IMG/VR virus record: IMGVR_UViG_3300009508_000004
Direction: 5' to 3' (one strand)
Length of the DNA: 62,535 bases
From: a virus
Of this stretch, positions 4,059 through 53,934 are shown piece by piece. The notes under the pieces were generated by a model. That model saw only the letters and a list, made by a program, of their open reading frames with translations, ran no database searches and had not been told where the DNA came from. Positions within the stretch are counted from its first letter, which is position 1. Each line of letters opens with the position of its first letter. Both the position numbers and the translations under genes were made by a program.

Positions 4059-4341
4059 TTCGACGTTTTACCTTATAGTTCTTGTTTCCTTCTTTTTTCG
4101 TGCCTTCGCCCCTGTTCCCACGGTTTGCAGCCACCGAAACGAAGCGATTTGTCCTGTGATCGAAGTCCATACCCTCAATACTGCGCCCATTTTTCTTAGC
4201 AGCGCGCCGTTGTGCCTGAGAATCAGCCTTTTTAGCCCTACGTGCAGGCGATTTCGCATACCTGAGGTCTCTCTCTGCCTTAGCCTTTGCAGCTTCCGGC
4301 GATAATTTCTGCTTTAAAGGTGAATTTGGCATATTAAACAT
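4051..4341 (-). CDS. Small highly basic protein with N-terminal SPLKQ box (96 aa)
   Basis: MFNMPNSPLKQKLSPEAAKAK...KSPARRAKK. K/R-rich with SPxK/SPxR motifs. The start may instead be the ATG at 4332. Confidence 0.6.
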   Translation of the reverse strand: MFNMPNSPLKQKLSPEAAKAKAERDLRYAKSPARRAKKADSQAQRRAAKKNGRSIEGMDFDHRTNRFVSVAANRGNRGEGTKKEGNKNYKVKRRNG

Positions 4342-4343: not shown

Positions 4344-4625
4344 TTATTTCCCTGAAACTAATCCGTGTAACTGTACGGTGGCATCGGCAATAGCACCTGT
4401 TTTTCTACCCGTCCATTTGCCAGCCGTCTTTGAAGCCGCTTTTCTTATGCCCGCCTTCGCAACCGTACCTATGCCAGGTAAACCCACTAGAGTATTGTCC
4501 ATTTTAATACCCCCTGTGCCTGTTTTCTCTCTTTTAGTGCGCAATGCTTGGTTTATTTCATCGCTAGACATCACTTGTTTTAGAGGTGATCCTAATGAGT
4601 TGGGTCCGATTCCTTTTTTATACAT
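4344..4625 (-). CDS. Small basic protein with GIGPxxLGSPLKQ N-terminus (93 aa)
   Basis: I place the start at the internal ATG 4625..4623 (MYKKGIGPNSLGSPLKQ...). This N-terminus is paralogous to those of 22316..22651 and 22663..22797. The track ORF extends to 4676. Confidence 0.55.
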   Translation of the reverse strand: MYKKGIGPNSLGSPLKQVMSSDEINQALRTKREKTGTGGIKMDNTLVGLPGIGTVAKAGIRKAASKTAGKWTGRKTGAIADATVQLHGLVSGK

Positions 4626-5036: not shown

Positions 5037-5113
5037 TGTGCATGCGAGCGGCAGCGAGCTGCAAGCGTATAGCATATAGGTGTATATACCTAGGTGTTTG
5101 TGCATATAGCATT

Positions 5114-5157: not shown

Positions 5158-5173
5158 CAAAAGAGTAATACAC

Positions 5174-5372: not shown

Positions 5373-5385
5373 TAAAAGAAACTAT

Positions 5386-5910: not shown

Positions 5911-5917
5911 CAATTTT

Positions 5918-5961
5918 CTTACAAAACCGACACGATGGAGTTTCGATAATATAAGTGTAAC
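5918..5961 (+). promoter_or_regulatory. Early promoter-like cassette, copy 3 of 14
   Basis: cttacaaaaccgacacgatggagtttcgataatataagtgtaac; ATG at 5976. Confidence 0.6.
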
Positions 5962-5975
5962 AAAAAAGAAATAAT

Positions 5976-22315: not shown

Positions 22316-22651
22316 TTATGCCGGATAATTTTCACCTAGCTTGCGACTCTTGCTACTAGCTATTGACCCTTTAGTAGAAAAAGTGCTACCGCCTTTTTTC
22401 ATATCCTTAGCTTCTTGCAAAGCCGCTTTAGTTTGTGGATTGCGATTTGCTTGATAATCCGAACGCGCTGCATTTAGGGTTTCGTTTAAAGCTCTTGTGT
22501 TTTTAGTATCTTGAGCCACACCTTTTTTATGCTTTGATTTAATACTATCGCCAGTTGGGTTTTCTGTTTGCTTCGCTGGCGATTTAGCCCCGTACATTTT
22601 CGCAGGTAATTTAGATGCTCCTAAGCCATGCGGCCCAATTCCTTTTTTCAT
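22316..22651 (-). CDS. Small basic protein, GIGPxxLG / SPAKQ N-terminus (111 aa)
   Basis: I place the start at ATG 22651..22649 (MKKGIGPHGLGASKLPAKMYGAKSPAKQ...). The longer track start at 22684 is an alternative codon and overlaps the upstream ORF. Confidence 0.55.
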   Translation of the reverse strand: MKKGIGPHGLGASKLPAKMYGAKSPAKQTENPTGDSIKSKHKKGVAQDTKNTRALNETLNAARSDYQANRNPQTKAALQEAKDMKKGGSTFSTKGSIASSKSRKLGENYPA

Positions 22652-22662
22652 AATTTCTTTTT

Positions 22663-22797
22663 TTATTTCTTTTTTGGTACACAATTAGGAACTTTTTTAC
22701 CGCCCTTATTTTTCATACCAATAGCTTCATATCCGGTCCAGCATGCTTTCTTAAGCTTTAGTGGACTGCCTAGCCGCTGAGGTCCGCAGCCAGCCAT
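22663..22797 (-). CDS. Small basic Cys-containing protein (44 aa) with GCGPxxLGSPLK N-terminus
   Basis: Below the track cutoff: MAGCGPQRLGSPLKLKKACWTGYEAIGMKNKGGKKVPNCVPKKK. TAATG coupling with the upstream gene. Confidence 0.5.
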   Translation of the reverse strand: MAGCGPQRLGSPLKLKKACWTGYEAIGMKNKGGKKVPNCVPKKK

Positions 22798-23237
22798 TAC
22801 TTTTTGTATTTTTTAGCTGGTGATTTAATACTTGCTTTTTTCTTATTAAGTTTCACCGGTTTTTCAGTCTCGCGACTAATATGGTAAACTCCTGTATCAT
22901 TACCTCTTTGTATTGTACCTTGTTTTTCGTGTTTTGAGCTGAAACCTTCATTGTAGTAATGTGCCCCGAGATTTGTGGTCATCGCCCCTAGGTTATAGTT
23001 TGTACCTCCAAAGCTTACACTTTTAGGAATATCCCTAGCACCCTTAACTTCTTTTAATGGTTTACCACCAACAGTTCCTTGGGAATTAGTTGCAGATACC
23101 GTTTGTTTAGCTGGTGATTCTGGTGTAGCTTTAATTGCATCTTGCAAAGCCTGTGGTAATTTTCCTTGATTGCCCTTTAATGCTTTAGCTAAAGGAGATT
23201 TTGTTGCCATTTTAAACGGCGATTTGTTATAACTCAT
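22797..23237 (-). CDS. Basic protein with repeated SP(F/L/A)K boxes (146 aa)
   Basis: MSYNKSPFKMATKSPLAKALKG...ESPAKQ...IKSPAKKYKK. Confidence 0.6.
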   Translation of the reverse strand: MSYNKSPFKMATKSPLAKALKGNQGKLPQALQDAIKATPESPAKQTVSATNSQGTVGGKPLKEVKGARDIPKSVSFGGTNYNLGAMTTNLGAHYYNEGFSSKHEKQGTIQRGNDTGVYHISRETEKPVKLNKKKASIKSPAKKYKK

Positions 23238-24295: not shown

Positions 24296-24296
24296 T

Positions 24297-24750: not shown

Positions 24751-27700
24751 TTATTTAGGCCTACGTTCAGGATATCTGATATAGTAATTCTCAAGAGCCT
24801 TATCTATTTTTTCTGATTCTTTCTTTTTTGCATTTGTAGCCCGAGTTTCTTTAGCTTTAACTTTACCTTCCTCTTTTCGTTTTGCTTTAGCTTCAGTCTT
24901 AATAAGATCGTGCTCTTCATTTTTAGCGCCTACGTCCCAAGTCTTCCAGCCAAGTGCTAATGCTATACGTTGCCAAGTTGTGTTGCGAGAATCGAGTGCT
25001 TCGACTATTGAGTTAAGCTCATCAACAATACGATCAAGCGGTACATTTCCGAGTGCAGATGAAAGGTTACCTATAATAGAATAAGCTGGACTTAAATTTA
25101 ACTTACCGTCAGCCATAACATCAAAACCTCTGGCTGCTAAAGTATCTCTTTCAAACTTTTTGGTTTGAATAGCTGAATAAAGTTTTCTAGCTTTTGAACC
25201 AATAGGTGGAGACAAACTTAACGCTTGTAGTATAGTGTAGGTGTGGTCGGACATAAATCCTTTTTCTTCTTGTTTAAAATACTCTGTAATAGTATTTTTA
25301 AGCGTTGCAATTACTGCGCCTCTAACCCCGCTACCTTTTAAAACAGAATCTGTCATGCTATTAATAATACGCAAGGTTCTTTGGTCATTTTTACGTTCAA
25401 GCTTTTCTAGCTCTTTTTCTGTCATTTCAGACTCGTCTTCTTCGTCAAATCCAGGTATGATAGCAAACAATGCGCTTTGTAATGCAGAGAATATAAAGTT
25501 CTGCACTGCACCATAATAAATAATCTTAGATATATGTGTTTTAGCATCGCCTCTACCATTAGCAAGATCTTTCATCGCTTTTTTCATCAATCGAGTATAC
25601 TGCATCGGAGTATTCTGGAATGCTAATACAAGACGACCTAAAGGACTACGTTGCTCTTGAGAAACCAAATATGGGTCAGAAGATTGCTGTGCTTCGTCCG
25701 CGGTTTTGCTAAAGTCTTCAAATGCTTGCTTTTCTGCGGCCGCCTGCTCCATACCTTCTTTAACGTAAGTATTTACGCGATTTCTATAAAACGACGCACC
25801 CCCAGCTGCAATAGCAAAACTATCCGCAATTTGAGTAGGTGTAAAACCAATTTTTAGCAAGTAAGCAATCACAGCACCCGCTCTATTTTTTGCACCTTTT
25901 GCTTCATTAGCAATTTCCGCCTGGTTTACATCTGTTTGTAATCCCGATCTACGTTCTTTTAACTTGTCAGAATTAAATATCATTGCAAAGTCAGACCAAT
26001 ATTGAGGTTGATTTGCAAAGGCCGCCGCAACTTTTAAAGGATTGTTGTCTGACCAGTTTATAAAGTTAGCGGTTGAAAGAGTTTGTAATATTGCAGACCG
26101 ACGGTTAAAGAACATAATAGCACCAGTAGAGTTGTTCACCCAGTTATACCAAGCATTCACCTGTGCATTATCACTGCCTGTTGTGCGGTTAGTACCGTTA
26201 GTCATTGCAAATAAAGCATCTTTTATAGCTTCTTTATGTCGCGTTCCGTAAACGGCTTCTATTTTGTTTAAGTTTTCAGCACTAAATATTGCTTCAGAGT
26301 TTTCAATAAATTCTTGTAAATATTTCTTTCTACCAACTTTTTCAGTCATTCCGTTCAAATCGGAAACTAAAGTGCGAGATAACCAATGCTCACCCGGCTC
26401 CATCCATGTATCTTGTCTAGATATAAGCTGCATCGCATTACCCATTTCAATAAACTGTGGCATTGCATTAATAGCGTTGATCAAAAATCTAATGTCGTTT
26501 TTATCCATTCCCGGTATATCTATACCTTGCTGGGTCCACATGTACACCCTTAATGCATGGTCATAAGTGTAATCGCTATTTGCAATTTTCTTACCTAGCA
26601 TTTTAAACAACTTTTTATCTGCCTTTCTTAAGGCATTAAGTTCGCGACGAATCTGCTGCTTTACAGCTTCAATCATTGCAATACCCCTAGTATAAGGAGT
26701 TATTATATTATCTTCAATAAACTTTTGATCAGCTTCCCCTTGCTTCCCTTTTCCTGCAAAGGTGTATGAGGTTAAGCCTCTAAAGTCTTCAGCTGATGCC
26801 GGCACAAACAAGCGGTATTTACCTTTTCTCTCACCCATCATACGAGCTTGAGCTTTTGAATAAATCTTGTCAGCAGCCACTCCTTTAGTCCGCTCAATCA
26901 TTCCGTTAAGCTCTTCACTTAGCCCTTGGCTAAACTTAGCGCCGGATGCTTCCAGCCCAGTAGTTACTTGATTTACAAATGCTTCAGGTAAAGCTTCACC
27001 GTAAGAAAGATTGTCAGTATTAATCTCGTAAAAGCGACCTGCATAGTCTTCCTTATACTGCTTAGCGCTTTCTTGTACGCTATCCCAAGTTTTGGTTACT
27101 ATAAAGTCAGCTAATGATCTTTCTGTTCTACTTTTATTTCTGTCAACAGCTACATTTTTACTAGTTTTAACATGCACCATATGTATTTCAAACCCTGCAT
27201 CTTCTAAAGCTTTCATTTTTTTCGTTGTAGCTTTATATGATGCGCCGGTGCCATCGACTACCATACTTTCTTTTGCGGCAGTATTCCTAGCTAAATCTTC
27301 TTCAGCGGCTTTTCTAGCTTTCCAACCTAGCTTAGCCCGTAAAGAACGCTGCTCCTTGTCATAAGTTTTTTCGTCGGTTGGTAGCCCGGCCTCTTTAATG
27401 TATCCTTCTAAGTAAGGGTCTTGGTTAACTAATCTGTATCCTTTATCAGTTAAGCCTAAACCTTTTAAAACGCTGGATTTTCCCGCACCAGGAGCCCCGA
27501 CCATAAACACGGCAATTGGAACGCTTGATGAATTTTTAACAGACTGGTTTAATAAATCTTTAGCTCTTTGAGCATTTTCGTAGTTAATGTCAATTTGCTG
27601 CTCATATATTGCTCGCTGCTGTTCATTATTAATATGATCCTCAAGCGTTTGCAGTTTATTATTTTCGCTTACGAAAGCAACAATATTTTTTCTATCCGCT

Positions 27701-30700
27701 TTAGCCAAGGTAATTGCTCTTAAAATACCTATTGGATTTGAAGTACCTGTGGTATCAACAAAATCAGTAACTTTTTGATCTGTAGCCCACAATGTATTTT
27801 TTTGAAATAACTTATTTAGCTCTTGAGTAACTTTTAATGTTATAATATTAGGATCAATATTTGACGCAATCCTAGCATTTCTAGCCTCAATAGCAATTTT
27901 AATAATATCAAAAGATAACTGAACATTGGGATAAACGTGCTCAATTTTTGGTGTACCCTCTATATTTAAAGAAGCATATATTAATTGACCAAATGCCCTG
28001 AACCCCTTAGTTTGTGATTTATTTTGCTTTTGCAAGATCCTTAAAAGTGTGACGGGAGATACTAGTTCATACTGAACCGCTAAAACCATTCTTTCAGCTA
28101 TAGCAGTTACTAATGCTTTATTTGCAATGTTGGTACGCTGCACAATGCTTAGCCTCATTTTAAATACCTCTTCGCCTTCTAAATTTTTTGGTATTCCTTT
28201 TTTACTTTTTTGATAAACACGAATTGATTCTGCTATAGATGATGCTTCTGAATGATAAGGACTAGCATCTTCAATAATATTAGTAATTGTGCTTCCTATC
28301 TTGCTTTCATTAATTTCTTTTCGTAAATTAATTATTTGATCTTTAGTGCTACTAAAAAATTCTACTCCTCCAAATTTTTTAATTTCTTCAGCATTAAATA
28401 AAGAAACAAGAGATAACGTTTCCGTATTGTGGGCTTGTAGTTCAAGTATGGCATCGGCATCACCACTTTCAGCTTTTTTTACAAGCGTTTCTATAGAAGT
28501 ATATTTAAGTTCGCCGTCAAAAAGGTCTGATTCTGTAATTAAACGTGCAATTTGAGGCCCGCTAGAATATTCATCAAGCAGCCCCGCATCTTCAGCTTTA
28601 GAAAGAGTATAAAATAATTTTGAAAAATCAACATTTGATATATCAACTATTTTAGTTGTTTTAGTTTTCTTTTTTAAAGCATCTTTTTGTAAATATTCAA
28701 TTACTTCTGGCTTAAAATTGCCCTTATTGTTGGGGTCTTCTAACGCGGACATAGCTTTTGCATCGTCTTGACCGCTCCAATACTTAACACCAACACGCAA
28801 AGCTTTAATTACATCTTCTTGACGTGTTTCTTCTATTGTAAAGCTATTAGAAGCTTTAACATTACCGCGCTCAGAATCAAGAGCTAACTTAGTAGCAAAA
28901 TCATTTATTTGCTCTACACCTAATCTTTCTTGGTTAGCTTCTAAAGCCTGGCGTATTTTGCTATCCGGATCTTGCATTTCACGGTTAACAATTTCAATAG
29001 CCATTTCTTCGCCAATAGCTTTGGCAAGAGACTCTTTTTTACCACGTAATGGATTACCTTTTTCGTCAAGAATAAATGACAAGAATGTTTTGTCATCTAT
29101 TTTTAATGAAGCTTGAGGTAGTCTTCTTGCTATTTCAGCTCCTGATGTTCTACCTGCTTTATCCGTATTTGTAGTTTCGCGATCAATTTTTTTACCTTTC
29201 CAATCGCTTGTAAATACGCCATTAACTTTCTTTTGAATGGCAGCGGGAAAAGCTGTCATCAAATAAGTAGTGGTCATGTTTTCAAGAATAGCTTTTTTGT
29301 TAGCTACTAAAAATTTTCTTAGCACCCCGTCTTTCTTGCCACCCATTGCTTTTTTCAAATCAATGTCCACCTGCTTACCCAATGCTAAACGTAATTCGTT
29401 CATTAAAGGTGTAACAGTTGTGTTTTTTGAAATCGGTGCGTCAATACGATTTTTAAGTGTGCCTACAACTCTTGGTATTTTTTCCATTAAAGCCTCAACC
29501 AACTCTGGCGTAGCCATACGACTATCTAATAAAGGGCGATACGTGGCTCTTTCGGCTTCCACACGCTCTTCTACTTGTTCTATAGTGGTAACATCAGCCG
29601 CAGCTCCTTTAAGGTCCTCTACGTCGCTCTGGTTAAAATCGTCAACAATATCGTTTTTCCCCTCACCAGAAGCCTTAAGCATGTCTTTAATGCGGAAACT
29701 AATACGACCATTTATATAACCATACAGCGTACCTCTACCGTCAAACTTGTTTATGTCTTGGTTGTAGTATATTCTGGCAATAATATCGTACTTAGCTTCT
29801 TCCGCATCAAACTTTAATCCTTTTATAGATAGCTTAGCCAACTGCGCCTGAACCATGCCATCAATTACTTTTGCAATTAAAGGAGAGTTAGGATCAAAGA
29901 ATTCCATATTGGAACTTACTTTTTCTAAAACCTGCTTTGCACGTTCTGCTTCTTTAGATATAGACTGTGAGTCTTTTTTGCTTTTTCTTTCTTCATTTTG
30001 AAATGCTCTAGCAAAATTTCTAATAAGCTTAGCAGTTTTCTTTGACTTATTTTTATTAGCGTAATTGGCTATAAATGCAAATGTTTGTTCGCCGTCCTGT
30101 ATTTTAATTGAAGTTTTGTCTCCCCGAACAAGGTTGTTTACAAATACGTTGATTTGTGATAAAGACTTTAGCCCTATTTCGTTGCCTTCCGCAATGTAAT
30201 CAGAAAGCACATTCATTGTTTCCTCGTAATATGCGTCAGCTTTTACACCATCTCTAGTGTAAGCTAAATCAAGCCTAGCTTTAACGTAAGAATGAGTTTC
30301 GGGTGCATTTTTTTGTAGCCAACCTAATAATTCTTCTCCCGCAGCGTTTGCGTCTTTGTTACTACCAAGTTTGTCTTGAACAATAGCGTGAAGTGCTTCA
30401 TGCGCCCATACTCCTGTACGACCGTTTGCCGCAGCAACATCCATATTAACTACAATTGTTTTACCATCAGCGCTAATAAATGCATCCCCATCTTTGTTAC
30501 CGCCACGCTTTATAAATTCAGCCTCATTAGCTTCTATAAGTTCAACTTCTAATCCGCTTGCTTTTAAAAGTTCGTCTGCAGTAATCTTATTTTCGCTAAT
30601 AAGATTTTTGGTTTTTTCAATATGAAAAGACTTTCCAGCTTCTAATCTTATTTCTTCACTAGTAGCATTTTCCCCAAGGTTTTCTTTTGCTTGTGATAAG

Positions 30701-33183
30701 TACTTGCTTCGTGCCGAATTTTTTAGTCTATTAAATTCTCTAAAGCTTTCAGATTGTTTTCTAGCGTTCTGTAAATAAAGCATAGACGCGTAACCTGCTG
30801 ACGCATCCATCGATGCCTTTAAAGAAGCGTTGTAAGCTTTAGCCTCTTTTGTATTAGTCTCATATGAAAGCAATGCTTCCCGCTTATCTGCAAGTTTATC
30901 AAACTTAGCTCTTAATGTTTTTTCTGCCGCAACTAATTCGGCACCAGCCACACCTGATTGAGCAATTTTTGTAAACCTTTCGTTTATCTGCTGCATTTCT
31001 AAAGAAATACGGCCAACCTCTATTACAACGTCATTAGATAAATCGTTACCCAATCTGTTTGCAATACCTGATTTTAACAATTCAATTTCACCAATTACTT
31101 CAGTAGCTAGCTTTTTTACTTCTGGGGATAGCCCTTCTAAATCAGTATTAGGATCTAATACGTTCTGTAAGTTGTCTATACCAGTTAACTCTTCTAATTG
31201 ATTAAGCTTAGCTTGGATATCTGCACGAGTGTTTTTATCCATAAGAGTACTTACCGCATACTCGTAAACCGCAGGGGCTACACTTTTTAAAGATAAAGGA
31301 CCGCCTATAAGAGCACCACCCGCATAAGCTTCACCTAATCCTTCGAATAAGTTAACTTGTTCGCCCATAAAGGCCCATTTTCCAAAATTGTTAGAAATTT
31401 GGGTTGCACCCTCTGACATACCTTCTTGGTTAGAAGCTTTTGCAAATTTTATTCCCGCTCCAGTTAAGCTTGTCGGGTTAATGGCTTTTGACGCATTTTT
31501 AAGAATAGCCATAGTACCAAGTCTTTCAAAAAGCACTTCGGACATACCGGCCCACGCTGATGTTGTAATCTTTCTCCACTGGGGCAAATTTGCTATTTTA
31601 GCATCTTCCTCCATTAAAGTTTCAATCTCTGAAATTTCTTCAGGAGACATGTTAACCCTTTGATTCTCTAATATCTCAGCATTTGTAGCTAACCTTTTTG
31701 TAGCTTCATACTGGTTCATCATTATTTCACTAGATGTACCACCATAGCCACTAAGAAAGAATAAAGGCATTGCTGCTGGTCCGGCAAAGGCCATAGATAA
31801 AGAAGGTATCGCTCCGATCGCTGTGCTACCTACCCAATCAAATAAGTCATCTAAGTCTTCTACTTGCTCTAAAGTAGGTGCTGTAGCAAATAACTGACTT
31901 TCTTTTTGGCCTCTTTCAATTAGGGGCAACCACGCTGCATCTAGCTCGTCCATTACCTCATCATCAGCAAATTCTACTCCTTTGGCTACACCTGTACCTA
32001 AAAGTGTAATTAACTGTGCACCGGCATAACCTAAATCTACAGCAGTTCTTTTAAAGTCTACGCCTAGCTTATTAAGCAAGCTATAGTCTTTATTAAAGTT
32101 ATCTACTGCAATCATTAAATCATCAGTATCTGATATAGTTTCAATAAATGAGGCTACCTCAGATCTTTGATTTTGTAGTGAAAGGATTTCTTCTTGTAAA
32201 TTAAATAAATCCTGCTGATTAGTAGGATTGTTTTTAAATTCTTCTATTCTATAAGCAAGATCGTTTTCAGCCATTTGAATTTGGCCAATCTCATTTTCTA
32301 TGTTATTAGCTCTATAAGCTAAATCCACTTTTTCTTTTGAAAGTACAGCCGCCACAGACTCTTTTACGTCGTCTGGAAGGTTATCAATATATTTTTGTCC
32401 GCTTCTTATCTTATTATTAAATATCAGCTCTTCTCTAAACGACTTGATCTGATCTTCTGTAGTATTAACTACACCGGTTTCTTTCCAGTTTAAATACTCA
32501 TCGAGCTCTTCTGGCGTTTCAAAATCTTTTGCCTCAAGAGTTCTTTTTTGGTTGGCCACAAACATACTGCTACCATCCATTCTAGGGGTAGATATAGTTT
32601 CCGCTTTATTCCAACTATTTATTTTTGAATCTACATAAATGTCATTAGCTTCGCTAAGACCAACTTCTTTTTCAGCAGTAGCTTCATAGTATTTATTAAT
32701 AACATCTTGGTTTTCTGCTTTAATTTTATCAGCGTAGCCAAGGTCACCTTGCTCTAAAATAAACGTGTTTAATTGCTCAAGCGCTTTTTGTTTATCCTTT
32801 AATTTTGCCGAAGTTCTAACACGATGCCCTTGCCCATCTATAGATTGGCTTTGCAACATAATAGTATTTCCCCAGCCAGTTTGGTCGGTTCTAATGCCTA
32901 GCGCTTGCATTTTATCTTTTATGCGTGGCTCTACGTCTTCTTCTTCACCCTCTAAATCTTCAAGTGTTAAAAGATAAGGCTCAAAGTTTGGTGACCCCAA
33001 AGAAATATCGCCCGATCTGGATTCCCCAGCGGACGTTTCTGTATTCTGACTTGTTGGTGGGTCTGTTTCCATCAAGTCGTTCTGCTTTCCCTCAGTATTA
33101 TTTGCTAATAGCTCTTCAACTGTTATGCCATTGCGGTTAGCAATTTCTTGCAATTTTTCAGGGCTAAATTTGTTAAGATCCAT
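24751..33183 (-). CDS. Giant polyvalent virion/internal-core protein (2810 aa) with HExxH metallopeptidase-like and zeta-toxin/AAA_33-like P-loop kinase modules
   Basis: Occupies the position of T7 gp16. Gly/Ala-rich hydrophobic segments at aa ~400-700. WAHEALHAIV at aa 926-935 (nt 30388..30402 encode HEALH). Walker A GAPGAGKS at aa 1896-1903 (nt 27475..27498), followed by LVNQDPY and MVVDGTGAS. Confidence 0.75.
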   Translation of the reverse strand: MDLNKFSPEKLQEIANRNGITVEELLANNTEGKQNDLMETDPPTSQNTETSAGESRSGDISLGSPNFEPYLLTLEDLEGEEEDVEPRIKDKMQALGIRTDQTGWGNTIMLQSQSIDGQGHRVRTSAKLKDKQKALEQLNTFILEQGDLGYADKIKAENQDVINKYYEATAEKEVGLSEANDIYVDSKINSWNKAETISTPRMDGSSMFVANQKRTLEAKDFETPEELDEYLNWKETGVVNTTEDQIKSFREELIFNNKIRSGQKYIDNLPDDVKESVAAVLSKEKVDLAYRANNIENEIGQIQMAENDLAYRIEEFKNNPTNQQDLFNLQEEILSLQNQRSEVASFIETISDTDDLMIAVDNFNKDYSLLNKLGVDFKRTAVDLGYAGAQLITLLGTGVAKGVEFADDEVMDELDAAWLPLIERGQKESQLFATAPTLEQVEDLDDLFDWVGSTAIGAIPSLSMAFAGPAAMPLFFLSGYGGTSSEIMMNQYEATKRLATNAEILENQRVNMSPEEISEIETLMEEDAKIANLPQWRKITTSAWAGMSEVLFERLGTMAILKNASKAINPTSLTGAGIKFAKASNQEGMSEGATQISNNFGKWAFMGEQVNLFEGLGEAYAGGALIGGPLSLKSVAPAVYEYAVSTLMDKNTRADIQAKLNQLEELTGIDNLQNVLDPNTDLEGLSPEVKKLATEVIGEIELLKSGIANRLGNDLSNDVVIEVGRISLEMQQINERFTKIAQSGVAGAELVAAEKTLRAKFDKLADKREALLSYETNTKEAKAYNASLKASMDASAGYASMLYLQNARKQSESFREFNRLKNSARSKYLSQAKENLGENATSEEIRLEAGKSFHIEKTKNLISENKITADELLKASGLEVELIEANEAEFIKRGGNKDGDAFISADGKTIVVNMDVAAANGRTGVWAHEALHAIVQDKLGSNKDANAAGEELLGWLQKNAPETHSYVKARLDLAYTRDGVKADAYYEETMNVLSDYIAEGNEIGLKSLSQINVFVNNLVRGDKTSIKIQDGEQTFAFIANYANKNKSKKTAKLIRNFARAFQNEERKSKKDSQSISKEAERAKQVLEKVSSNMEFFDPNSPLIAKVIDGMVQAQLAKLSIKGLKFDAEEAKYDIIARIYYNQDINKFDGRGTLYGYINGRISFRIKDMLKASGEGKNDIVDDFNQSDVEDLKGAAADVTTIEQVEERVEAERATYRPLLDSRMATPELVEALMEKIPRVVGTLKNRIDAPISKNTTVTPLMNELRLALGKQVDIDLKKAMGGKKDGVLRKFLVANKKAILENMTTTYLMTAFPAAIQKKVNGVFTSDWKGKKIDRETTNTDKAGRTSGAEIARRLPQASLKIDDKTFLSFILDEKGNPLRGKKESLAKAIGEEMAIEIVNREMQDPDSKIRQALEANQERLGVEQINDFATKLALDSERGNVKASNSFTIEETRQEDVIKALRVGVKYWSGQDDAKAMSALEDPNNKGNFKPEVIEYLQKDALKKKTKTTKIVDISNVDFSKLFYTLSKAEDAGLLDEYSSGPQIARLITESDLFDGELKYTSIETLVKKAESGDADAILELQAHNTETLSLVSLFNAEEIKKFGGVEFFSSTKDQIINLRKEINESKIGSTITNIIEDASPYHSEASSIAESIRVYQKSKKGIPKNLEGEEVFKMRLSIVQRTNIANKALVTAIAERMVLAVQYELVSPVTLLRILQKQNKSQTKGFRAFGQLIYASLNIEGTPKIEHVYPNVQLSFDIIKIAIEARNARIASNIDPNIITLKVTQELNKLFQKNTLWATDQKVTDFVDTTGTSNPIGILRAITLAKADRKNIVAFVSENNKLQTLEDHINNEQQRAIYEQQIDINYENAQRAKDLLNQSVKNSSSVPIAVFMVGAPGAGKSSVLKGLGLTDKGYRLVNQDPYLEGYIKEAGLPTDEKTYDKEQRSLRAKLGWKARKAAEEDLARNTAAKESMVVDGTGASYKATTKKMKALEDAGFEIHMVHVKTSKNVAVDRNKSRTERSLADFIVTKTWDSVQESAKQYKEDYAGRFYEINTDNLSYGEALPEAFVNQVTTGLEASGAKFSQGLSEELNGMIERTKGVAADKIYSKAQARMMGERKGKYRLFVPASAEDFRGLTSYTFAGKGKQGEADQKFIEDNIITPYTRGIAMIEAVKQQIRRELNALRKADKKLFKMLGKKIANSDYTYDHALRVYMWTQQGIDIPGMDKNDIRFLINAINAMPQFIEMGNAMQLISRQDTWMEPGEHWLSRTLVSDLNGMTEKVGRKKYLQEFIENSEAIFSAENLNKIEAVYGTRHKEAIKDALFAMTNGTNRTTGSDNAQVNAWYNWVNNSTGAIMFFNRRSAILQTLSTANFINWSDNNPLKVAAAFANQPQYWSDFAMIFNSDKLKERRSGLQTDVNQAEIANEAKGAKNRAGAVIAYLLKIGFTPTQIADSFAIAAGGASFYRNRVNTYVKEGMEQAAAEKQAFEDFSKTADEAQQSSDPYLVSQEQRSPLGRLVLAFQNTPMQYTRLMKKAMKDLANGRGDAKTHISKIIYYGAVQNFIFSALQSALFAIIPGFDEEDESEMTEKELEKLERKNDQRTLRIINSMTDSVLKGSGVRGAVIATLKNTITEYFKQEEKGFMSDHTYTILQALSLSPPIGSKARKLYSAIQTKKFERDTLAARGFDVMADGKLNLSPAYSIIGNLSSALGNVPLDRIVDELNSIVEALDSRNTTWQRIALALGWKTWDVGAKNEEHDLIKTEAKAKRKEEGKVKAKETRATNAKKKESEKIDKALENYYIRYPERRPK

Positions 33184-33200: not shown

Positions 33201-34346
33201 TTAGTTATCTAAAATGTCTTTTGCTTCTTCAAGAGTGTAAATAACACCATCAATATAATAATGGTCGCCCTGTAATTGGCTAATCATTTCCTTTTTATCT
33301 TCGGGAGCAAATCGGACATCAACTTTTTGCACTACTTTACCACTAATCTTTTGAGGTGTTTGCGGATATTTATCTACGTCAGCCCATCTTTCAGCGTAGT
33401 CTTTACCACCTTTTGGGCTTGATGGGGTGCTACTTGGATTGTTTCTTTTTTTACGCTTTCTTTCTTTTTCAGCATAACCTTCATTAGCAACTTGTGTTAA
33501 AGCACCCATTATAGCGTCTTTAACCTGCATACGCGTACCAGCTACATCTTCAGGATTGTAAGCAATCCCGCTTAAATCAATACCGTTACCCGCAAAGTCC
33601 CCCGCTAATATAGATTTTATAGTATCAGGGTTTGCAAGCATAGCTTCAACCTGTGTGCCTAAAAGCTGTGCTTTAGTTCCGTCAAGCTTTTGACCAGTGT
33701 TGAAAATTTGATTTGTAGTTTCCAAAAGACTATTCATTGTTTTATAGTCTTTCATCATAGGCTCTTTATAATCTTTATAAGACTGAGCTACACCGTCAAC
33801 CTCAAACATTATATGACCACCGTCTGCTACAGTAAAATTTGCAGGCACTTCAGGGTCTAAGCCGTAAAGCGATGCTGCAGCTTGTATTTCACTGCCGCTT
33901 GCCGCATTAGAGTAAAGATCAGCTTTGTGAGTTTCAGCATAGCTTACTTTAGCCTCTTTATAAGCCTTTACTTCTTCAGACAAATTAACAAAGCTACGGT
34001 TCACGCCGTTCATTATATCAACGTAATGTTGGTACTCAGGTGATGAAGCATCGTCAATCTTAGCAATCTCGTTTGCAGCATTAGCATATATAGAACGTTG
34101 CGAAACTAAAAAGCCTCGCATTGCCGATGTCTGTTCTGGGCTAAGCCCGTCTAAGTCAATGTCAGACTTAAGGTTATCTATATACCCGTTTACTCGCGAC
34201 TTTGTAGCCTGCTTACGTTCTCTTTCTTTTATGTAGAAGTTTTCACCCTGTACTGGGTTGGGTACATTAATAGCCTCTGCATAATTTACAAAGCCTTCAG
34301 ATTTGCCTACGAAGCCAGCACCTTTTATTAAATCACTATTTGCCAT
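33201..34346 (-). CDS. Internal virion protein candidate (381 aa)
   Basis: Synteny (gp15-like slot). The N-terminus DLIKGAGFVGKSEGFVNYAEAI is homologous to aa 41-62 of 52367..52735. Confidence 0.45.
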   Translation of the reverse strand: MANSDLIKGAGFVGKSEGFVNYAEAINVPNPVQGENFYIKERERKQATKSRVNGYIDNLKSDIDLDGLSPEQTSAMRGFLVSQRSIYANAANEIAKIDDASSPEYQHYVDIMNGVNRSFVNLSEEVKAYKEAKVSYAETHKADLYSNAASGSEIQAAASLYGLDPEVPANFTVADGGHIMFEVDGVAQSYKDYKEPMMKDYKTMNSLLETTNQIFNTGQKLDGTKAQLLGTQVEAMLANPDTIKSILAGDFAGNGIDLSGIAYNPEDVAGTRMQVKDAIMGALTQVANEGYAEKERKRKKRNNPSSTPSSPKGGKDYAERWADVDKYPQTPQKISGKVVQKVDVRFAPEDKKEMISQLQGDHYYIDGVIYTLEEAKDILDN

Positions 34347-49482: not shown

Positions 49483-50017
49483 ACTTGATTGTGATTCGAT
49501 TCTGGGGAACTCGGTAAACCTTCTCTCCCTCAATATTAAATTCGTATTCTGTACCAGGTGTAAAACCTATAAGCTCTCCGTCTTCAAAACCTTCGTAAGC
49601 ATATTTCACTTTACCTACTAAAGGCATTTCGTTATGTTCGGAAAACATTCTTTCATCTAACATAGGCTTAACAAATATAAAACCCTTCACAGGTTTCCAT
49701 TCATCGTTACGTTTGAATGCATAGATCTGATCAGGGTATACAAAGTACTTGTCTTCTTCATAATACGAGCGGCTGTTCTTTTCAGCACCGCGCACATCTC
49801 TAAATCTTCTGAATACATTATGGTGAACAATAACTTCATCACCAGGTTGTAAGCCTAAATCATTTATTTTGGGTACAGCTTTGACAACGCCGTGTCTGCT
49901 GGTATAAAGATGGTTTTGCAATTCTGTATTAAGTAACAGAGTTACACCATTTATTTCTTTTTCCGATGTCGTTCTTTTGGCATACGGAGATATAATAAAG
50001 TTGTATATGCTTTGCAT
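49427..50017 (-). CDS. Hypothetical protein (196 aa) with two GroES-like beta-barrel-like halves
   Basis: ATG at 50017 (MQSIYNFIISPY...). HGVVKAVP....GLQPGDEVIVHHNVF and PLVGKVKYAYEGFEDGELIGFTPGTEYEF resemble Cpn10 G.V.avG....v.vGD.V.f. Weak. Confidence 0.3.
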   Translation of the reverse strand: MQSIYNFIISPYAKRTTSEKEINGVTLLLNTELQNHLYTSRHGVVKAVPKINDLGLQPGDEVIVHHNVFRRFRDVRGAEKNSRSYYEEDKYFVYPDQIYAFKRNDEWKPVKGFIFVKPMLDERMFSEHNEMPLVGKVKYAYEGFEDGELIGFTPGTEYEFNIEGEKVYRVPQNRITIKYGHQTSEKEYNPSWSQSS

Positions 50018-50256
50018 CACCACTTAAGATCATATTCGATAGATACTGCCATGTTCTTATTAAAGTCTTTCCACGGCATAACCAAATCTCCTTTTTGAAT
50101 ATAGATAGAGTACTTAGATTCCTCTTCTAATATGTTAACTATAGTATGACCGCCATACACTTCCTGTCCAACAGAATAGTGCATGGCGTCATTTTTATAG
50201 TCCTTGCCGATACTAATCTTCCTTATTATCTGCATCGTTAGGAGTGATAGCTCCAT
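50017..50256 (-). CDS. Hypothetical protein (79 aa)
   Basis: Track ORF with a true ATG. Overlaps the upstream gene by 44 nt, so the start could be the internal ATG at 50235. Confidence 0.45.
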   Translation of the reverse strand: MELSLLTMQIIRKISIGKDYKNDAMHYSVGQEVYGGHTIVNILEEESKYSIYIQKGDLVMPWKDFNKNMAVSIEYDLKW

Positions 50257-50479
50257 CTTGTAAGTTGATACTTACGTCTCCATAAGTTTTTTCTAGCTCA
50301 GCTTGTACTTCAGCTAGCTTTGTACGTAATGCCTTAACGTTATCCATAAGCTCAGCTTTCTGCATTTCAGTTCCACCGATCTGCATTTGAATTTGCTGTA
50401 GGGCATTAACGTACTTTTGTACTTCAGTTAGCTCGTCTGCTGTGATTGCTTTAGCAACCGCTTCTTTCTTCTTTCCCAT
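50213..50479 (-). CDS. Small coiled-coil protein (88 aa), paralog of 56292..56546
   Basis: Shared ...EL.EV......N......G..E..K.........L..(E/Q).(K/E)LE(K/E)TYG(D/S)(V/I)S(I/V)NL(Q/E)(D/T)G. Confidence 0.6.
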   Translation of the reverse strand: MGKKKEAVAKAITADELTEVQKYVNALQQIQMQIGGTEMQKAELMDNVKALRTKLAEVQAELEKTYGDVSINLQDGAITPNDADNKED

Positions 50480-50509: not shown

Positions 50510-50824
50510 TTAGCAGTTCCATCTACGGCGTGCTGCTCTACCACGTTCACTTGTCCAACTTTTAGAGCGTGCACAAAATGCTTTGCGACGCTTTGCGGCT
50601 TTACTACCAGGCTTCAATTCCGAAGGCGGAGTAGTTACCGCTGTCTGCAATTTACTACCTGGATTGTCTTTTTTATACTTTTCTACACCTTTTTTTGTCA
50701 TACCACCTCCAGCAGCAGCACCGGTACCGGTTTTATTAGCTTTGTTGTAGTATCCTTTAGACTTTTTACGAGAAGGTGCATCACCTTTAGCTTTAAAAGG
50801 CGAATTGTTTTGTACGTATGCCAT
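50510..50824 (-). CDS. Small basic protein with SPFK box and Cys-containing basic tail (104 aa)
   Basis: MAYVQNNSPFKAKGD...KRRKAFCARSKSWTSERGRAARRRWNC. Confidence 0.6.
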   Translation of the reverse strand: MAYVQNNSPFKAKGDAPSRKKSKGYYNKANKTGTGAAAGGGMTKKGVEKYKKDNPGSKLQTAVTTPPSELKPGSKAAKRRKAFCARSKSWTSERGRAARRRWNC

Positions 50825-50825
50825 G

Positions 50826-52367
50826 TTACTTACCTTTAAAGTATCCTTTTTTCATTGGAGTAGACTTCTTAACACCAACATTGCTTTCATAGCGCATTTG
50901 TGCGGCGCTAATAACAGAACGGTCTGAATCTTTTCTTGTTGGCGTTCCATCTGAAAGCCCAGGACTTGTTCTATTATAAGAAGATCTGTCAGCCGTCCCC
51001 GTATTCGCTTGAATTGAACCAGCTGTAAATTTATTAGCTTCACGCACACCGGCATTTTTTCGATCAGTTAATGCTTCCGACAAATCGCCTAGCTCTGATT
51101 TACTCATTCCCGTACCTGCAAAGTTACTACCTGCAGAAGGCTTGGGTGCCGATATTGGAGCTAATTTACTTGCGCCTTTTAACTCCGGAGTTGGAATTGA
51201 AGCAGACTTAGAACCTAGCTTATCTGTAGATACTACAGTGTTTTCTTTTCTTTCTTGACGACGTATTTGTCGCTTTGATAGTTCTTTTTCGCCTTTAGGG
51301 GCGCGAGTTTTACGTGGCTTTGAGTTAGTTTCTTTAGGGGTAACAGCTACAGCGTCGGGCATTGTAGCATCCGCTTGAGCTACTTGTCTAGCTTTTTTAG
51401 TAGCTACTAAATCAACACTAGGAACCGATGCCCCTTTAAACTCTGCATTTAAACCTACGCTTGGGCGCATTGCAGCTTTGCTTGATGCACCAGTACCGTT
51501 AACTTTATTAGTTGTAGGCGCACCCGCATTTGCTGATTTAGCATCACCTCCTGTAGTAGTTACTTTTTCGTTAGAGCCTAATTTTACCTTGTAATCAGGA
51601 TCATAACCCTGCAGCGTTTTTACTGTGGTTGAACCTGTTGCTGTGCCATAATCGTACATGTCCATGTCTCGACGCGTCCCCAGCACTTTTTCACCACGCA
51701 TTCCCGCTTGCTCAAATTGACTTTGTTGTGCGTCTGTACTAAACACTCTGTTCTGATCAGCATTTAGCCCTCTAGAAGCATTGTATAAGTTTTCCTGCAT
51801 GCCATTTTGAAAAGACTTGCCGGTCATAATATCACGACGAGCTTTACGCCCTTCTAAGAAACTTCCACCATCTTGGCGTGTATCGCGCGCTGCTTCTTTT
51901 GCATTTCTGCGTAAATCGCGTTTAGCTTCATTACGTGCAAAACGCTCGCTTTGGCGGCTAGTACGCATATTGAAACGATTTTCCCACGGCGTTATTGCTG
52001 TGGTTTCATCACGAGTTTGTGGGGTAAAGTAGTTCGTTTTTGTTTCGGTTATTGGTTTACCGGGTGTAACCTTTTTTTCCTTAAAGTCAGACGCAGACGG
52101 GAATCTATCAGCATAATTACTGGTAATGTATTTTTTATCAACTAAGTATTGACCTGTAGCGTTTGGAAACCGTTTTTTTAATCCAGCTAAATAGCCTTCT
52201 GTGTCGGTTGCTAGTGGATATCCACCTTGAGCTTCAGGGGGAACTTCACTATTGTCTACTTCAGTAACAATGTCTTCTCCCGCGCTCGTGGAAGTTTCAG
52301 ACTTTTCCAGAACAGGGTTAGTTTGCTTTAATGGTGATTTTGCTTTTTGTGTAATTGGTCGTCTCAT
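50826..52367 (-). CDS. Large basic, low-complexity protein with N-terminal SPLKQ box (513 aa)
   Basis: MRRPITQKAKSPLKQTNP... K/R/S/T/G-rich and probably disordered. Confidence 0.6.
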   Translation of the reverse strand: MRRPITQKAKSPLKQTNPVLEKSETSTSAGEDIVTEVDNSEVPPEAQGGYPLATDTEGYLAGLKKRFPNATGQYLVDKKYITSNYADRFPSASDFKEKKVTPGKPITETKTNYFTPQTRDETTAITPWENRFNMRTSRQSERFARNEAKRDLRRNAKEAARDTRQDGGSFLEGRKARRDIMTGKSFQNGMQENLYNASRGLNADQNRVFSTDAQQSQFEQAGMRGEKVLGTRRDMDMYDYGTATGSTTVKTLQGYDPDYKVKLGSNEKVTTTGGDAKSANAGAPTTNKVNGTGASSKAAMRPSVGLNAEFKGASVPSVDLVATKKARQVAQADATMPDAVAVTPKETNSKPRKTRAPKGEKELSKRQIRRQERKENTVVSTDKLGSKSASIPTPELKGASKLAPISAPKPSAGSNFAGTGMSKSELGDLSEALTDRKNAGVREANKFTAGSIQANTGTADRSSYNRTSPGLSDGTPTRKDSDRSVISAAQMRYESNVGVKKSTPMKKGYFKGK

Positions 52368-52735
52368 TATACTTCTAGTTCAAAGTTGTCGTAAAATTCT
52401 TCAGATTCCTCTATGGCTTCCGTTTCTTCTTGTAAATCAGTGTCTTCTTCTAAATCAGCTGCCTTACCCTCATCAAGCGGCGGAGGTGGCACTTTAGCTG
52501 GCTCTTTATATACAGTTTGTTGTTTTTCTGATAAAGAAGGTTTTTCAATTGCTTCAGCTACGTTATTAAAGCCTGCACTCATTCCAACCATACCAGCACC
52601 TTCAACAAGTGCTGCGTTCATCTTAAACGGAGATGATTTTTGGGTAATGGGGGTCGCGGAAGAATTTCCTTGTCGAGTAGCCGATTCTGCCGAATTGTAC
52701 AACCCCCATAAATCTTTTTTCATTTTAAACCCCAT
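52367..52735 (-). CDS. Protein with SPFKM box and acidic tail (122 aa)
   Basis: ..QKSSPFKMNAALVEGAGMVGMSAGFNNVAEAI... then an E/D-rich C-terminus. Confidence 0.55.
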   Translation of the reverse strand: MGFKMKKDLWGLYNSAESATRQGNSSATPITQKSSPFKMNAALVEGAGMVGMSAGFNNVAEAIEKPSLSEKQQTVYKEPAKVPPPPLDEGKAADLEEDTDLQEETEAIEESEEFYDNFELEV

Positions 52736-52737
52736 AC

Positions 52738-53088
52738 CTAACTGTTTTTATATGCTTCAGTTTCCCACTCAAGCTCTTTAGCGCCCTCTTGCATATCGTC
52801 TCTTTTATAAACTCTTGCAGGCGAGCGTGTATCTTTTTTCCAAATTACACTATCATCAGTATAGTCTAATCTATTCTGATGCATTTGATCTAAGTGAATC
52901 TTTTCGTGCGCAACCGCCCCTTTTTTTTGCTTAGCTGACAAACCCTTATTAATAAAAATAGTTCCGTCACGATTAGCTTCCGCCATCACTTGGCCACCTA
53001 AATCTTTTTCAAATACAGGCGTATCAAATGTTGAGGTTTGCTCATCGTAACCGAACAGGGTACTCTTATCCTTAAGCTTAAAAGGCAT
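52738..53088 (-). CDS. Small HExxH (zincin-like) protein (116 aa)
   Basis: ATG at 53088 (MPFKLKDKSTLFG...). GAVAHEKIHLDQMH; HEKIH is encoded at 52894..52908. Confidence 0.5.
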   Translation of the reverse strand: MPFKLKDKSTLFGYDEQTSTFDTPVFEKDLGGQVMAEANRDGTIFINKGLSAKQKKGAVAHEKIHLDQMHQNRLDYTDDSVIWKKDTRSPARVYKRDDMQEGAKELEWETEAYKNS

Positions 53089-53243
53089 TAGCAATTACAC
53101 TTTCCTGTGCAACCGCAGCTTGCTGCATTAGTAAAGTTAGCACGCTTTTTACCAGCTGCATCTAATGTAACTTCTTGATTTGCAGGTGCTTTACCGTAAT
53201 CAGTAACTGCACGCTTTGTAATAGGCTGTAAGTGATTCTTCAT
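53088..53243 (-). CDS. Small protein with Cys-rich C-terminus (51 aa)
   Basis: Below the track cutoff: MKNHLQPITKRAVTDYGKAPANQEVTLDAAGKKRANFTNAASCGCTGKCNC. ATGA and TAATG coupling on its two sides. Confidence 0.45.
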   Translation of the reverse strand: MKNHLQPITKRAVTDYGKAPANQEVTLDAAGKKRANFTNAASCGCTGKCNC

Positions 53244-53680
53244 CGTTCTTTGTCTTTAATCATGTCGTCTATAGCTTTATTATAGACTTTATCAGTATAA
53301 CTCTTGTTCTTGTAAAATTTGCTTGATCTACCGATTGGCAAATCTTCTTCCCCAAGCATAACTCGATACATTCGTGTAATCAAGCGCTTCGCTTTGGGTG
53401 ACGTTGTGAAAACACTGTATTTGATTGTAGTCCTATTACGATGACGCCATACGTCAATCCAGCCATCATTTCGAAGTCTTTCCCAGCGGTTTTTATCCCA
53501 TGCATAGGTGTAAGTTCCTTCTATAAAATCATTACGCGTAAATCGCTCTTTGCAATCTAGATATATCAGTAGCTCTAGGTCAGCATCTAATATATCGTAA
53601 GTCTTACAAGCCCACTTCCTAACGAGCCTGTAATACTTAAACAAATTCATTTCGCGTAAATCCGCGGGTGTTAGTCTCAT
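53240..53680 (-). CDS. Hypothetical protein (146 aa)
   Basis: Track ORF, W/R/K-rich. Confidence 0.55.
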   Translation of the reverse strand: MRLTPADLREMNLFKYYRLVRKWACKTYDILDADLELLIYLDCKERFTRNDFIEGTYTYAWDKNRWERLRNDGWIDVWRHRNRTTIKYSVFTTSPKAKRLITRMYRVMLGEEDLPIGRSSKFYKNKSYTDKVYNKAIDDMIKDKER

Positions 53681-53934
53681 TCTACAATAACGACATCACC
53701 TACGGTAATAACATGGAACAACTCATCATTCCATTCGATACCATGACCAGCGTGTTTATCGTATCTAATAGTGTTTCCATTTTCAACACCAATCACTAAT
53801 GGTCCACAGCTAACGACTTCAGCCTTTAGATACCTAACGTCGCTGTTTTGCTTTTCAGTTAATTCAAGGCCGGCAACTGTTTTAGCTGCCTCCTTGATTT
53901 TCTTAATTATAATATAATTATTTACCGCTTTCAT
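53677..53934 (-). CDS. groS: GroES/Cpn10-like co-chaperonin (85 aa)
   Basis: NNYIIIKKI......AGLELTEK......YLKAEVVSCGP......GNTIRYDKHAGHGIE.....FHVITVGDVVIVE follows the Cpn10 pattern. Overlaps the 3' end of the chaperonin gene. Confidence 0.65.
   Translation of the reverse strand: MKAVNNYIIIKKIKEAAKTVAGLELTEKQNSDVRYLKAEVVSCGPLVIGVENGNTIRYDKHAGHGIEWNDELFHVITVGDVVIVE

Follow-up and report, generated by a model that had tools for sequence, protein, structure and literature searches.

The internal proteins of bacteriophage T4 are diverse, basic and fast-evolving; all that is conserved among them is a short leader, which a packaged protease removes (PMC3012670; 10.1101/2021.01.19.427310). For the polyvalent proteins, which include P1 DdrB and N4 vRNAP, it was predicted that zincin metallopeptidases (MPTases, 12 clades) process the packaged molecules before, during or after delivery (Iyer et al. 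2017; PMC5512222). The muzzle gene of crAss001 is directly followed by the genes for its cargo (PMC10172136). Here we compare with these systems a set of late genes in the IMG/VR virus record IMGVR_UViG_3300009508_000004, a stretch of 62,535 nucleotides, which we call the window. The products of these genes share a short box, in most of them near the N-terminus, and one of them has an HExxH motif. By sequence comparison, the box belongs to a terminal tag found throughout the lineage, with the core [A/P]-Φ-K-x-K-G, of which it is a degenerate local form; this tag probably serves as an address by which proteins are loaded into the virus particle. That the tag and the HExxH protein make up a system of cargo addressing and peptidase processing is, in our analysis, close to an even call. 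As far as we could find, such a tag system is undescribed so far, and it is larger than the window alone shows.

The statistics of the box in the window cover 88 called proteins with 19,160 amino acids (aa). SP[LF]K sites occur six times in these proteins, as opposed to the 0.36 expected from composition; shuffling of the individual proteins yielded a mean of 0.32 sites, and none of 2000 shuffles reached six. All six sites fall within the first 40 residues of small minus-strand proteins, where 0.05 would be expected. The shared box is a genuine observation and not a product of chance. Because its codons vary (TCA/TCG/TCT, CCT/CCA/CCG, TTA/CTA, AAA/AAG), the boxes are repeated at the protein and not at the DNA level, and a DNA-level repeat can be ruled out as their origin.

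The initial annotation had reported four consecutive minus-strand genes with a shared box next to a peptide with a cysteine tail, and all five open reading frames (ORFs) were confirmed at or directly beside the positions given there, from 53243 down to 50510. The first encodes this 51-aa peptide (53088..53243), which has a variant leader too, MKNHLQPITKR, of the PIT type (PITKR at 53211-53225), and whose C-terminus is the cysteine tail, CGCTGKCNC; it is 57% identical, with an in-frame gap of six codons, to its homologue in the related locus L003. The second encodes the HExxH protein (52738..53088), a mini-zincin candidate of 116 aa, which opens with MPFKLKDK (MPFKLK tag at 53071-53085) and has HEKIH at residues 61-65. 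Comparison with homologues places the start of this gene at the ATG at 53088 and not at the TTG at 53094. The third product, an acidic 122-aa protein (52367..52735), starts with MGFKMK followed further on by PITQKSSPFKMN (PITQK at 52637-52651, SPFKMN at 52616-52633, the box being at aa 35). After the box comes an N-x-x-L-V-x-G-A-G module, which is paralogous to the N-terminus of the 381-aa protein encoded at 33201-34346. A homology between aa 41-62 of the 122-aa protein and that N-terminus had been proposed, and it proved to be longer: residues 40-109 align (BLASTP, 36% identity over 75 aa, E = 2e-7). The fourth gene (50826..52367) codes for a basic, low-complexity protein of 513 aa opening with MRRPITQKAKSPLKQ (PITQK at 52344-52358, SPLKQT at 52320-52337). 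Nothing was found for it in Pfam, in PHROG or by tblastn; it is 30% identical to a 306-aa protein of L003, which opens alike. The fifth product, a basic 104-aa protein (50510..50824), combines a DUF6321 domain (Pfam PF19846), on which it scores 39.8 bits, above the gathering cut-off of 28.5, with the leader MAYVQNNSPFKAKG (box at 50786-50803).

Four further genes with the N-termini described initially lie in two other minus-strand clusters. In the cluster at 22316-23237, a basic 146-aa protein (22797..23237) opens with MSYNKSPFKMATKSPLAKALKG (box at 23205-23222) and has two more SPAK boxes, its homologues in the loci L023 and L063 beginning with MAFKMYGKTPMTKALVGKQ. Its neighbour, a basic 111-aa protein (22316..22651), opens with MKKGIGPHGLG..PAKMYGAKSPAKQ (GIGP at 22631-22642, SPAKQT at 22565-22582), and an opener of this KGIGPN-LG type recurs on a DUF6321 homologue. 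The other cluster encodes a basic 93-aa protein (4344..4625) opening with MYKKGIGPNSLGSPLKQ (box at 4572-4589) and a very basic 96-aa protein (4051..4341, isoelectric point (pI) 11.2), which opens with MFNMPNSPLKQK (box at 4306-4323), also contains SPARRAKK, matches phrog_6437 and has homologues that open with SPIK and SPLK. The initial count of six more boxed proteins in these two clusters was too high, there are only four, one of them with SPAK in place of SP[LF]K; the total of at least nine is reached if the 51-aa PITKR peptide and the HExxH protein are included, otherwise it is smaller. Similarly, the statement that most of these proteins are very basic holds for six of the nine (pI at least 9.9), and the 51-aa peptide has a pI of 9.3, but two are acidic, namely the HExxH protein (pI 5.9) and the 122-aa protein (pI 4.3). 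Searches of PHROGs and Pfam with the tagged proteins gave nothing useful beyond DUF6321.

Some smaller observations concern the surroundings of these boxes. Three small holin-like membrane proteins (phrog_2658; 23250-24361, minus strand) are encoded next to the 22316-23237 cluster. Cysteine-rich elements recur beside the tags, as the C-terminal tails CGCTGKCNC, GCGCKSGACMCRK and GNCPPCPPCA (window 53088-53243; loci L063, L111, L139), and in DUF6321 homologues (alignment A3) as inserts of the kind CGC.., CPCP.. and SCGCKTSCGCGSP placed just before the SPxK box. These elements may bind metal.

The same group of genes was found in IMG/VR relatives anchored by their TerL (75-95% identity), where the openers are MAFKM-PKSP, MAFKLK, NTPITARV and PITQKSKSPLKMN. 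The SPFKAKG, SPFKMA, SPLKQK and PFKLKD of the window and the AFKMKG of the lineage have the common core [A/P]-Φ-K-x-K(-G). The tag occurs in several variants (MAFKMKG; M..PITxK..SPΦK; MAYxQ..SPFKKKG; KGIGPxxLG), examples of tag peptides being MAFKMKGFSGF, PITQKAKSPLKQ and ..AFKMKGWSAY. A DNA pattern encoding MAFKMKG is present in at least 120 IMG/VR stretches, and at least 64 of 119 MAFKMKG loci carry homologues of the TerL, zincin and GroEL of the window and of the conserved 146-aa protein encoded at 53240..53680. Among the matches listed, 140 of 145 distinct MAFKMKG matches in IMG/VR coincide with the first ATG of an ORF of at least 40 aa, as compared with 11 of 70 in GTDB genomes. In 596 Gb of bacterial and archaeal genomes the heptapeptide was matched 74 times, which is the level of chance, and there was no leader protein among the matches; a cellular origin of the tag can thus be rejected. 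The cellular match that recurred is an internal motif of an unrelated, conserved Bacteroidota protein, presumably an asparaginase-type hydrolase.

The MAFKMKG ORFs are mostly small, lysine-rich and unrelated. The 128 non-peptidase tagged proteins show no relationship to each other and have a median length of 120 aa, a median pI of 9.9 and 18% Lys; in 34 of them, as opposed to an expected 0.05, SPxK is found at residues 8-40, at about five times their own downstream rate. Synonymous sites of MAFKMKG vary while the heptapeptide stays the same, and the rest of the proteins is unalignable, a pattern of substitution indicating that selection acts on the tag peptide. In some loci (L095, L143, L151, L169, L190, L198, L201) the MAFKMKG proteins consist largely of (A/S/P)-M-K-(M/L)-K repeats, e.g. 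KEAAMKMKKESAMKLK, in which the core of the tag is reiterated internally. We found no phage paper with SPLKQ, FKMKG or DUF6321 in the searchable literature.

The tag behaves as a module. There are 4758 clusters of DUF6321 homologues, and leader variants are interchangeable among them: in 120 close homologues the same domain is preceded by MAY[VIT]Q..SPF[KL]KKG, MAFQM.PKSPL, M..PIT.K.. or M..KGIGPN.LG. Conservation of the box in homologues, on which its initial interpretation as a signal depended, was found both in this family, where the box Pro (P9 of SPF) is invariant in 44 homologues, and in the 122-aa family, which keeps PITxK..SP[LF]K[MI]N with the box always one residue before N-x-x-L-V-x-G-A. 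The openers of the zincins alternate likewise, between M[AG]FKL[KG] and MAKPITNRVK. The initial annotation had described the box as N-terminal, and so it is in the window, but the broader [A/P]-Φ-K-x-K-G tag also occurs internally and at extreme C-termini. In 39 proteins an N-terminal zincin is joined to a lysine-rich tail; PITxK occurs 19 times in these tails and SPxK 14 times, and at least nine of the 39 end with ..[SAP]FKMKG[WFY].. within the last 20 residues.

In all 54 members of the 381-aa family, which have no leader, the extreme N-terminus (M-A-N/D..) is formed by the module found after the box in the 122-aa family. These leaderless N-termini would match the product expected if the leader was removed after the box. 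The box is thus conserved and modular, as would suit a signal, but it never precedes the 381-aa proteins.

DUF6321 also occurs in T4-like cyanophages, where it lies between TerS and TerL. In Synechococcus phage S-N03 (L206, 427-2665) two genes are found between TerS and TerL. One encodes a lysine-rich 231-aa protein starting with MKTYQELMEV, which resembles the capsid-targeting sequence (CTS) of T4 and was seen in S-N03 only, and the other a 501-aa protein with DUF6321 at its end; in P-TIM68, too, this DUF6321 gene precedes TerL. The arrangement in S-N03 is an independent positional parallel.

The HExxH protein has 227 close homologues, none of them with a Pfam domain. In their alignment (A1) H61, E62, H65, E109 and E111 (WExEAY) are invariant, together with a GEAN-DG-I strand, and the tag residues F3, L5 and K6 are nearly so. 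The AlphaFold2 model (pLDDT 90.5) shows strands at 25-28, 36-38 and 44-47, the HExxH helix at 52-70, a hairpin region at 74-95 and, at 107-115, a C-terminal helix with WExEAY. The zinc-ligand pattern of the zincins is therefore present in the model, with HExxH on one helix and E109/E111 on a later one. The closest PDB neighbours in Foldseek are minigluzincins (selecase 4qhi, proabylysin 4jiu), IrrE/PprI, BlaR1 and snapalysin (probability 0.9-0.97, rmsd ~2 Å over ~50 residues); for the minigluzincins the probability is 0.92-0.96, with TM-scores of 0.32-0.38 and E 0.14. In BFVD the protein matches viral proteins, some of them named SprT-like or IrrE-like, with E-values of 7e-10 to 2e-3. Sequence searches were less productive. 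Among 47 family members the best E-value on Pfam M78 was 0.0032, and the window protein reaches 12.7 bits against a cut-off of 22 bits; DUF6782 stayed below its cut-off, SprT-like was not matched, and the profile of the family found nothing among PDB sequences. The only tblastn match was in Methylophilales phage Melnitz (E = 0.01), without the tag. The confident fold and the sub-threshold Pfam matches together make this protein a zincin-fold candidate peptidase outside the curated families. The peptidase fold assumed for it initially thus agrees with structure prediction, and according to the model the protein is a mini-zincin, a candidate peptidase bearing the tag itself.

Box and HExxH protein had been connected on the strength of their neighbourhood in the window, and synteny across related loci upholds this connection. 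Five of the tagged genes form a cassette, which we define as the segment from the conserved 146-aa gene to the 79-aa gene upstream of TerL. Its upstream border, the 146-aa gene (53240..53680, minus), is present in at least 62 related loci; its downstream border is formed by a conserved 88-aa coiled-coil gene and the 79-aa gene (50017..50479, minus), ahead of the genes for a GroES-like protein and TerL. In 70 non-identical loci the cassette varies from 1.3 to 11 kb and from 2 to 14 ORFs. Apart from the zincin, its tagged products are a hypervariable set of late proteins, small, rich in lysine and for the most part disordered. A zincin is encoded in 55 of the 70 cassettes, with the tag at the start of 53 of these 55 zincins. 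Other tagged proteins are found in 36 of the 55 zincin-positive and in three of the 15 zincin-negative cassettes (Fisher p = 0.003), and both zincin and tags are absent from the complete related genomes MW202828, Panino and phi18:3. Another sublineage (L096, L158) has, after the giant gene described below, genes for small basic and holin-like membrane proteins together with an amidase, a PhoH-like protein and a tagged zincin.

A profile search of 1.84 billion representatives yielded 446 relatives of the zincin, and a motif-based check located the domain in 85 of the best 150. It is free-standing in 30 of these 85, an N-terminal domain with a long lysine-rich tail in 39, and a C-terminal domain in 16, in proteins of 226 to 2725 aa including eleven giants of at least 1479 aa. 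One of the giants (P0254, 2725 aa) aligns with residues 1885-2756 of the 2810-aa protein of the window at 45% identity over 888 residues, after which it continues with a zincin (last ~150 aa); the free zincin of the window is therefore the unfused counterpart of this domain. SPxK was considered as the junction in the giant fusions and discarded: the SP[TA]KKLERG found there aligns with TPVFxKxL, the first strand of the zincin, thus it is part of the domain and not a linker box.

The giant protein of the window (24751..33183, minus) is of the polyvalent or cargo type, with a Zeta_toxin/AAA_33 P-loop domain at 1884-2038 and HEALH at 928. Its gene directly follows those of the muzzle protein, the 219-aa protein and the 381-aa protein (33201..34346, minus; N-terminus MANSDLIKGAG), the last of which is itself in cargo position after the muzzle and 219-aa genes. 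In phi18:3 the syntenic proteins, including gp121 in the position of the 381-aa protein, are virion proteins verified by mass spectrometry (MS). As far as can be judged from these architectures, the fusion of zincin to giant protein would be a new argument for virion association.

We propose a mechanism in three steps. The tag would address proteins to the assembling particle, to a cargo space in capsid or tail, so that they become internal proteins ejected together with the DNA. The zincin, which in relatives is the C-terminal domain of a giant cargo protein, would travel along and trim the tags, process the cargo, or both. Early in infection, DNA or the host would then be the target of the basic cargo. 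In its most specific form, which we offer only tentatively, the proposal states that a large, uncultured lineage of marine podophages uses a dedicated peptide addressing code, in which interchangeable tags of 7-15 residues load a changing set of small lysine-rich proteins and a mini-zincin into the virion for co-injection, and the zincin removes the tag or releases the cargo.

A number of points weigh against this proposal. Presence in the virion, cleavage after the box, DNA binding and the activity of the tagged proteins are what we infer from the genes. The E-values of the zincin in the Foldseek search of PDB are above 0.1, and its Pfam matches are below cut-off. We had expected beforehand to see the leader on distant homologues of the 381-aa protein, and found it on none of the 54, therefore the tag is not needed by every putative cargo. 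BLAST detected no sequence similarity between the phi18:3 virion proteins verified by MS and the giant, 381-aa and 219-aa proteins of the window; the status of the latter as cargo rests on synteny. The cassette loci are phylogenetically non-independent, and in the unbiased, TerL-anchored subset, which is small, the difference in tagged proteins between cassettes with and without zincin (7 of 16 vs. 0 of 6) is not significant (p = 0.12). Two of the tag clusters adjoin genes for holin-like membrane proteins or tail fibres, which would fit a lysis or accessory role equally well. Finally, neither tblastn with 20-aa peptides nor blastn with a 54-nt query found a tag-bearing cultured phage; the blastn matches in elemo phages are due to chance, being on the wrong strand and in the replication region.

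These points leave room for other explanations. It is possible, though unlikely, that the tag is a substrate or regulatory motif of the zincin in the infected cell and has no role in encapsidation, cleavage at [A/P]|Φ-K serving to activate, release or destabilise the small proteins, e.g. by exposing an N-terminal Phe or Leu. Thermolysin-like peptidases prefer a hydrophobic residue in P1', and the box, in which a small residue or Pro is followed by a hydrophobic one, would suit such a preference. Zincin and tag are tightly linked, the zincin is tagged itself, the box is at a module boundary in the 122-aa family, and MPTases may act after entry into the host (PMC5512222). A cut in the MAFKMKG proteins would, however, remove merely two residues, and a scissile site does not explain intact tags at extreme C-termini. 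Moreover, the fusion of zincin to a giant protein in cargo position would still imply delivery with the particle.

The lysine content and high pI of the tagged proteins could also mean that the boxes are working parts of histone-like nucleic acid binders, which condense or coat phage or host DNA through SPKK-like or K-aromatic-K contacts. The SPKK motif of histones H1 and H2B is a minor-groove DNA-binding tetrapeptide, S/T-P-(K/R)-(K/R). SPARRAKK and SPAKKYKK stretches, and the internal (A/S/P)MK(M/L)K repeats of some relatives, are in line with such a role, and lysines of the T4 internal proteins contact DNA (PMC3012670). The analogy with SPKK drawn in the initial annotation nevertheless fails, since the third residue of the box is L, F or A and not basic; the box does not have the S/T-P-basic-basic pattern. 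The tag is also present on the acidic 122-aa protein and on the zincin, and a strictly terminal position and the swapping of variants on one domain would be unexpected for a DNA-contact motif. The structure model of the DUF6321 protein (pLDDT 75.7, helical) has no analogue in PDB, thus no DNA-binding one; taken alone, the missing analogue speaks neither for nor against DNA binding. We consider the histone-like explanation rather improbable.

Still less credible to us is common descent without any function in addressing or processing, according to which these are fast-evolving, paralogous, cationic late proteins, accessory or lysis-associated, whose N-termini are alike by descent or by recombination at gene starts. 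The hypervariable cassette with its many tandem genes would be expected in such a case, the clusters adjoin holin-like, amidase and tail-fibre genes, and the DUF6321 gene of HTVC028P is in a lysis-like region. But descent does not account well for a heptapeptide kept with varying codons in proteins whose remainder is unalignable, for a tag on unrelated folds (zincin, DUF6321) and at C-termini, or for its absence from complete related genomes without zincin.

The idea that the tag marks clients of the phage GroEL/GroES was rejected as very improbable: the window and about 50 related loci do have GroEL/GroES directly upstream of the cassette, but MW202828 and Panino encode GroEL and have no tags and no zincin, and the tagged proteins, mostly of low complexity, are unlikely chaperonin clients.

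The remaining features of the window concern the phage itself. The window is a segment of a phage genome with late genes on the minus strand, which include tail fibres, GroEL/GroES, TerL, portal (44561-46990), scaffold (43383-44528) and capsid protein (41944-43362) and the 1431-aa, 219-aa, 381-aa and 2810-aa proteins. GroEL and GroES are encoded at 53677-55486, and a second GroES-like protein (196 aa, phrog_13932) at 49427-50017, immediately upstream of TerL, all on the minus strand. There was no nucleotide match in GenBank phages for either the head region or the tag-gene region. At 44-49% identity, the capsid protein resembles its counterparts in the elemo phages of Flavobacterium, in Cellulophaga phages, in Maribacter phage Panino and in the metagenomic genome MW202828. 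The 1431-aa protein (35049-39344, minus) is a crAss-type muzzle protein with PF25731 (crassvirus muzzle protein) and PF25729 (its C-terminal domain). The presence of a muzzle protein in a phage whose head genes are like those of Cellulophaga, Flavobacterium and Maribacter podophages means that the crAss-type tail architecture reaches outside Crassvirales. The source of the window is an uncultured marine podophage with a crAss-type muzzle, which probably infects Flavobacteriia. A metagenome-assembled genome of Polaribacter sp. (GCA_028142465.1) contains a 54.7-kb contig of the same phage lineage (JAOHTZ010000003.1, L286) with genes for GroEL/ES, the 146-aa protein, a tagged zincin, PIT-type tagged proteins, DUF6321, TerL and portal; its binning is a weak hint at Polaribacter as host. 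At the switch between late and early strands there is a gene-poor 1.3-kb region (4626-5975) with three copies, at 5116, 5331 and 5920, of a ~54-nt element, TACAAAACCGACACGA..CGATAATATA.ATGTAAC, and with short TTTATACCTAGTA and GGTCTGGTCCCGGCT repeats. These elements may function as early promoters or as a replication origin. No tRNA and no Rfam match was found in the window.

Should the tag be a signal for encapsidation or processing, one class, that of virion-delivered cargo, would take in hundreds of small hypothetical proteins from abundant phages of marine flavobacteria, the locus would point to the enzyme handling this cargo, and a ready peptide would be at hand for loading foreign proteins into such capsids. 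It would also mean that one peptidase domain occurs either fused to a giant cargo protein or free beside separately encoded, tagged cargo. Whatever its mechanism, the tag offers a simple means of recognising this phage lineage and its hypervariable cassette from sequence. The addressing code, if true, would amount to unbundled polyvalent proteins and to a second, independent invention of the CTS principle of T4, and it would resemble the loading of encapsulins. Encapsulin cargo-loading peptides are short, N- or C-terminal, connected by flexible linkers, and address unrelated proteins into an HK97-fold shell; the likeness is one of logic only, the consensus sequence being different.

It is useful to compare this locus with the other known systems in turn. 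Like SPKK, the boxes begin with Ser-Pro, have a lysine-rich context and are repeated in basic proteins, but they have L, F, A or M in position 3, are terminal and occur on acidic proteins too. With the minimal zincins (minigluzincins, IrrE/M78, SprT-like) the candidate peptidase shares the length of ~110 aa and the predicted three-stranded sheet, HExxH helix and Glu helix; the extra beta hairpin region at 74-95 and the conserved tag are specific to the window family. The 219-aa, 381-aa and giant genes come directly after the muzzle gene, at the position where crAss001 encodes its cargo (gp45, gp46 and gp47/49/50), and a comparison can also be drawn to the ejection proteins of P22/T7-type podoviruses. 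In contrast to crAss001, there is no sequence similarity between the cargo proteins, and the tagged genes are mostly in a separate cassette upstream of TerL. For crAss cargo we know of no report of an addressing tag or of a peptidase dedicated to it.

The closest parallels are the two with which we began. As with the CTS (MKTYQEFIAE), the internal proteins IPI-III and the protease gp21 of T4, a short N-terminal peptide is the only common feature of diverse small, basic late proteins, a protease gene is associated with them, and the genes lie beside head and packaging genes. The tag differs from the CTS in having no similarity to it and no gp21 site (L/I-x-E), and in occurring in several variants, also at C-termini and internally. 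The protease candidate is a 115-aa zincin and not a serine prohead protease, and the phage is a podovirus with a crAss-type muzzle and no recognisable T4-like core; the only gene between portal and capsid protein (43383-44528) had no Pfam match, though not every late protein was screened for an S77-type protease. With the polyvalent MPTases the zincin shares HExxH and a downstream Glu helix in a predicted fold of three-stranded sheet and helices, and in relatives the domain is likewise C-terminal in late proteins of 1.5-2.7 kaa with a P-loop kinase and a second HExxH. Unlike in the polyvalent proteins, the zincin of the window is free-standing and accompanied by separately encoded, tagged proteins, and neither this unbundling nor a tag is described there (PMC5512222). 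The proposal, if true, would join two ideas so far separate, the targeting leader of T4 and the polyvalent protein processed by a metallopeptidase, in a system where the effectors are separately encoded and individually tagged, and the zincin is either free or fused.

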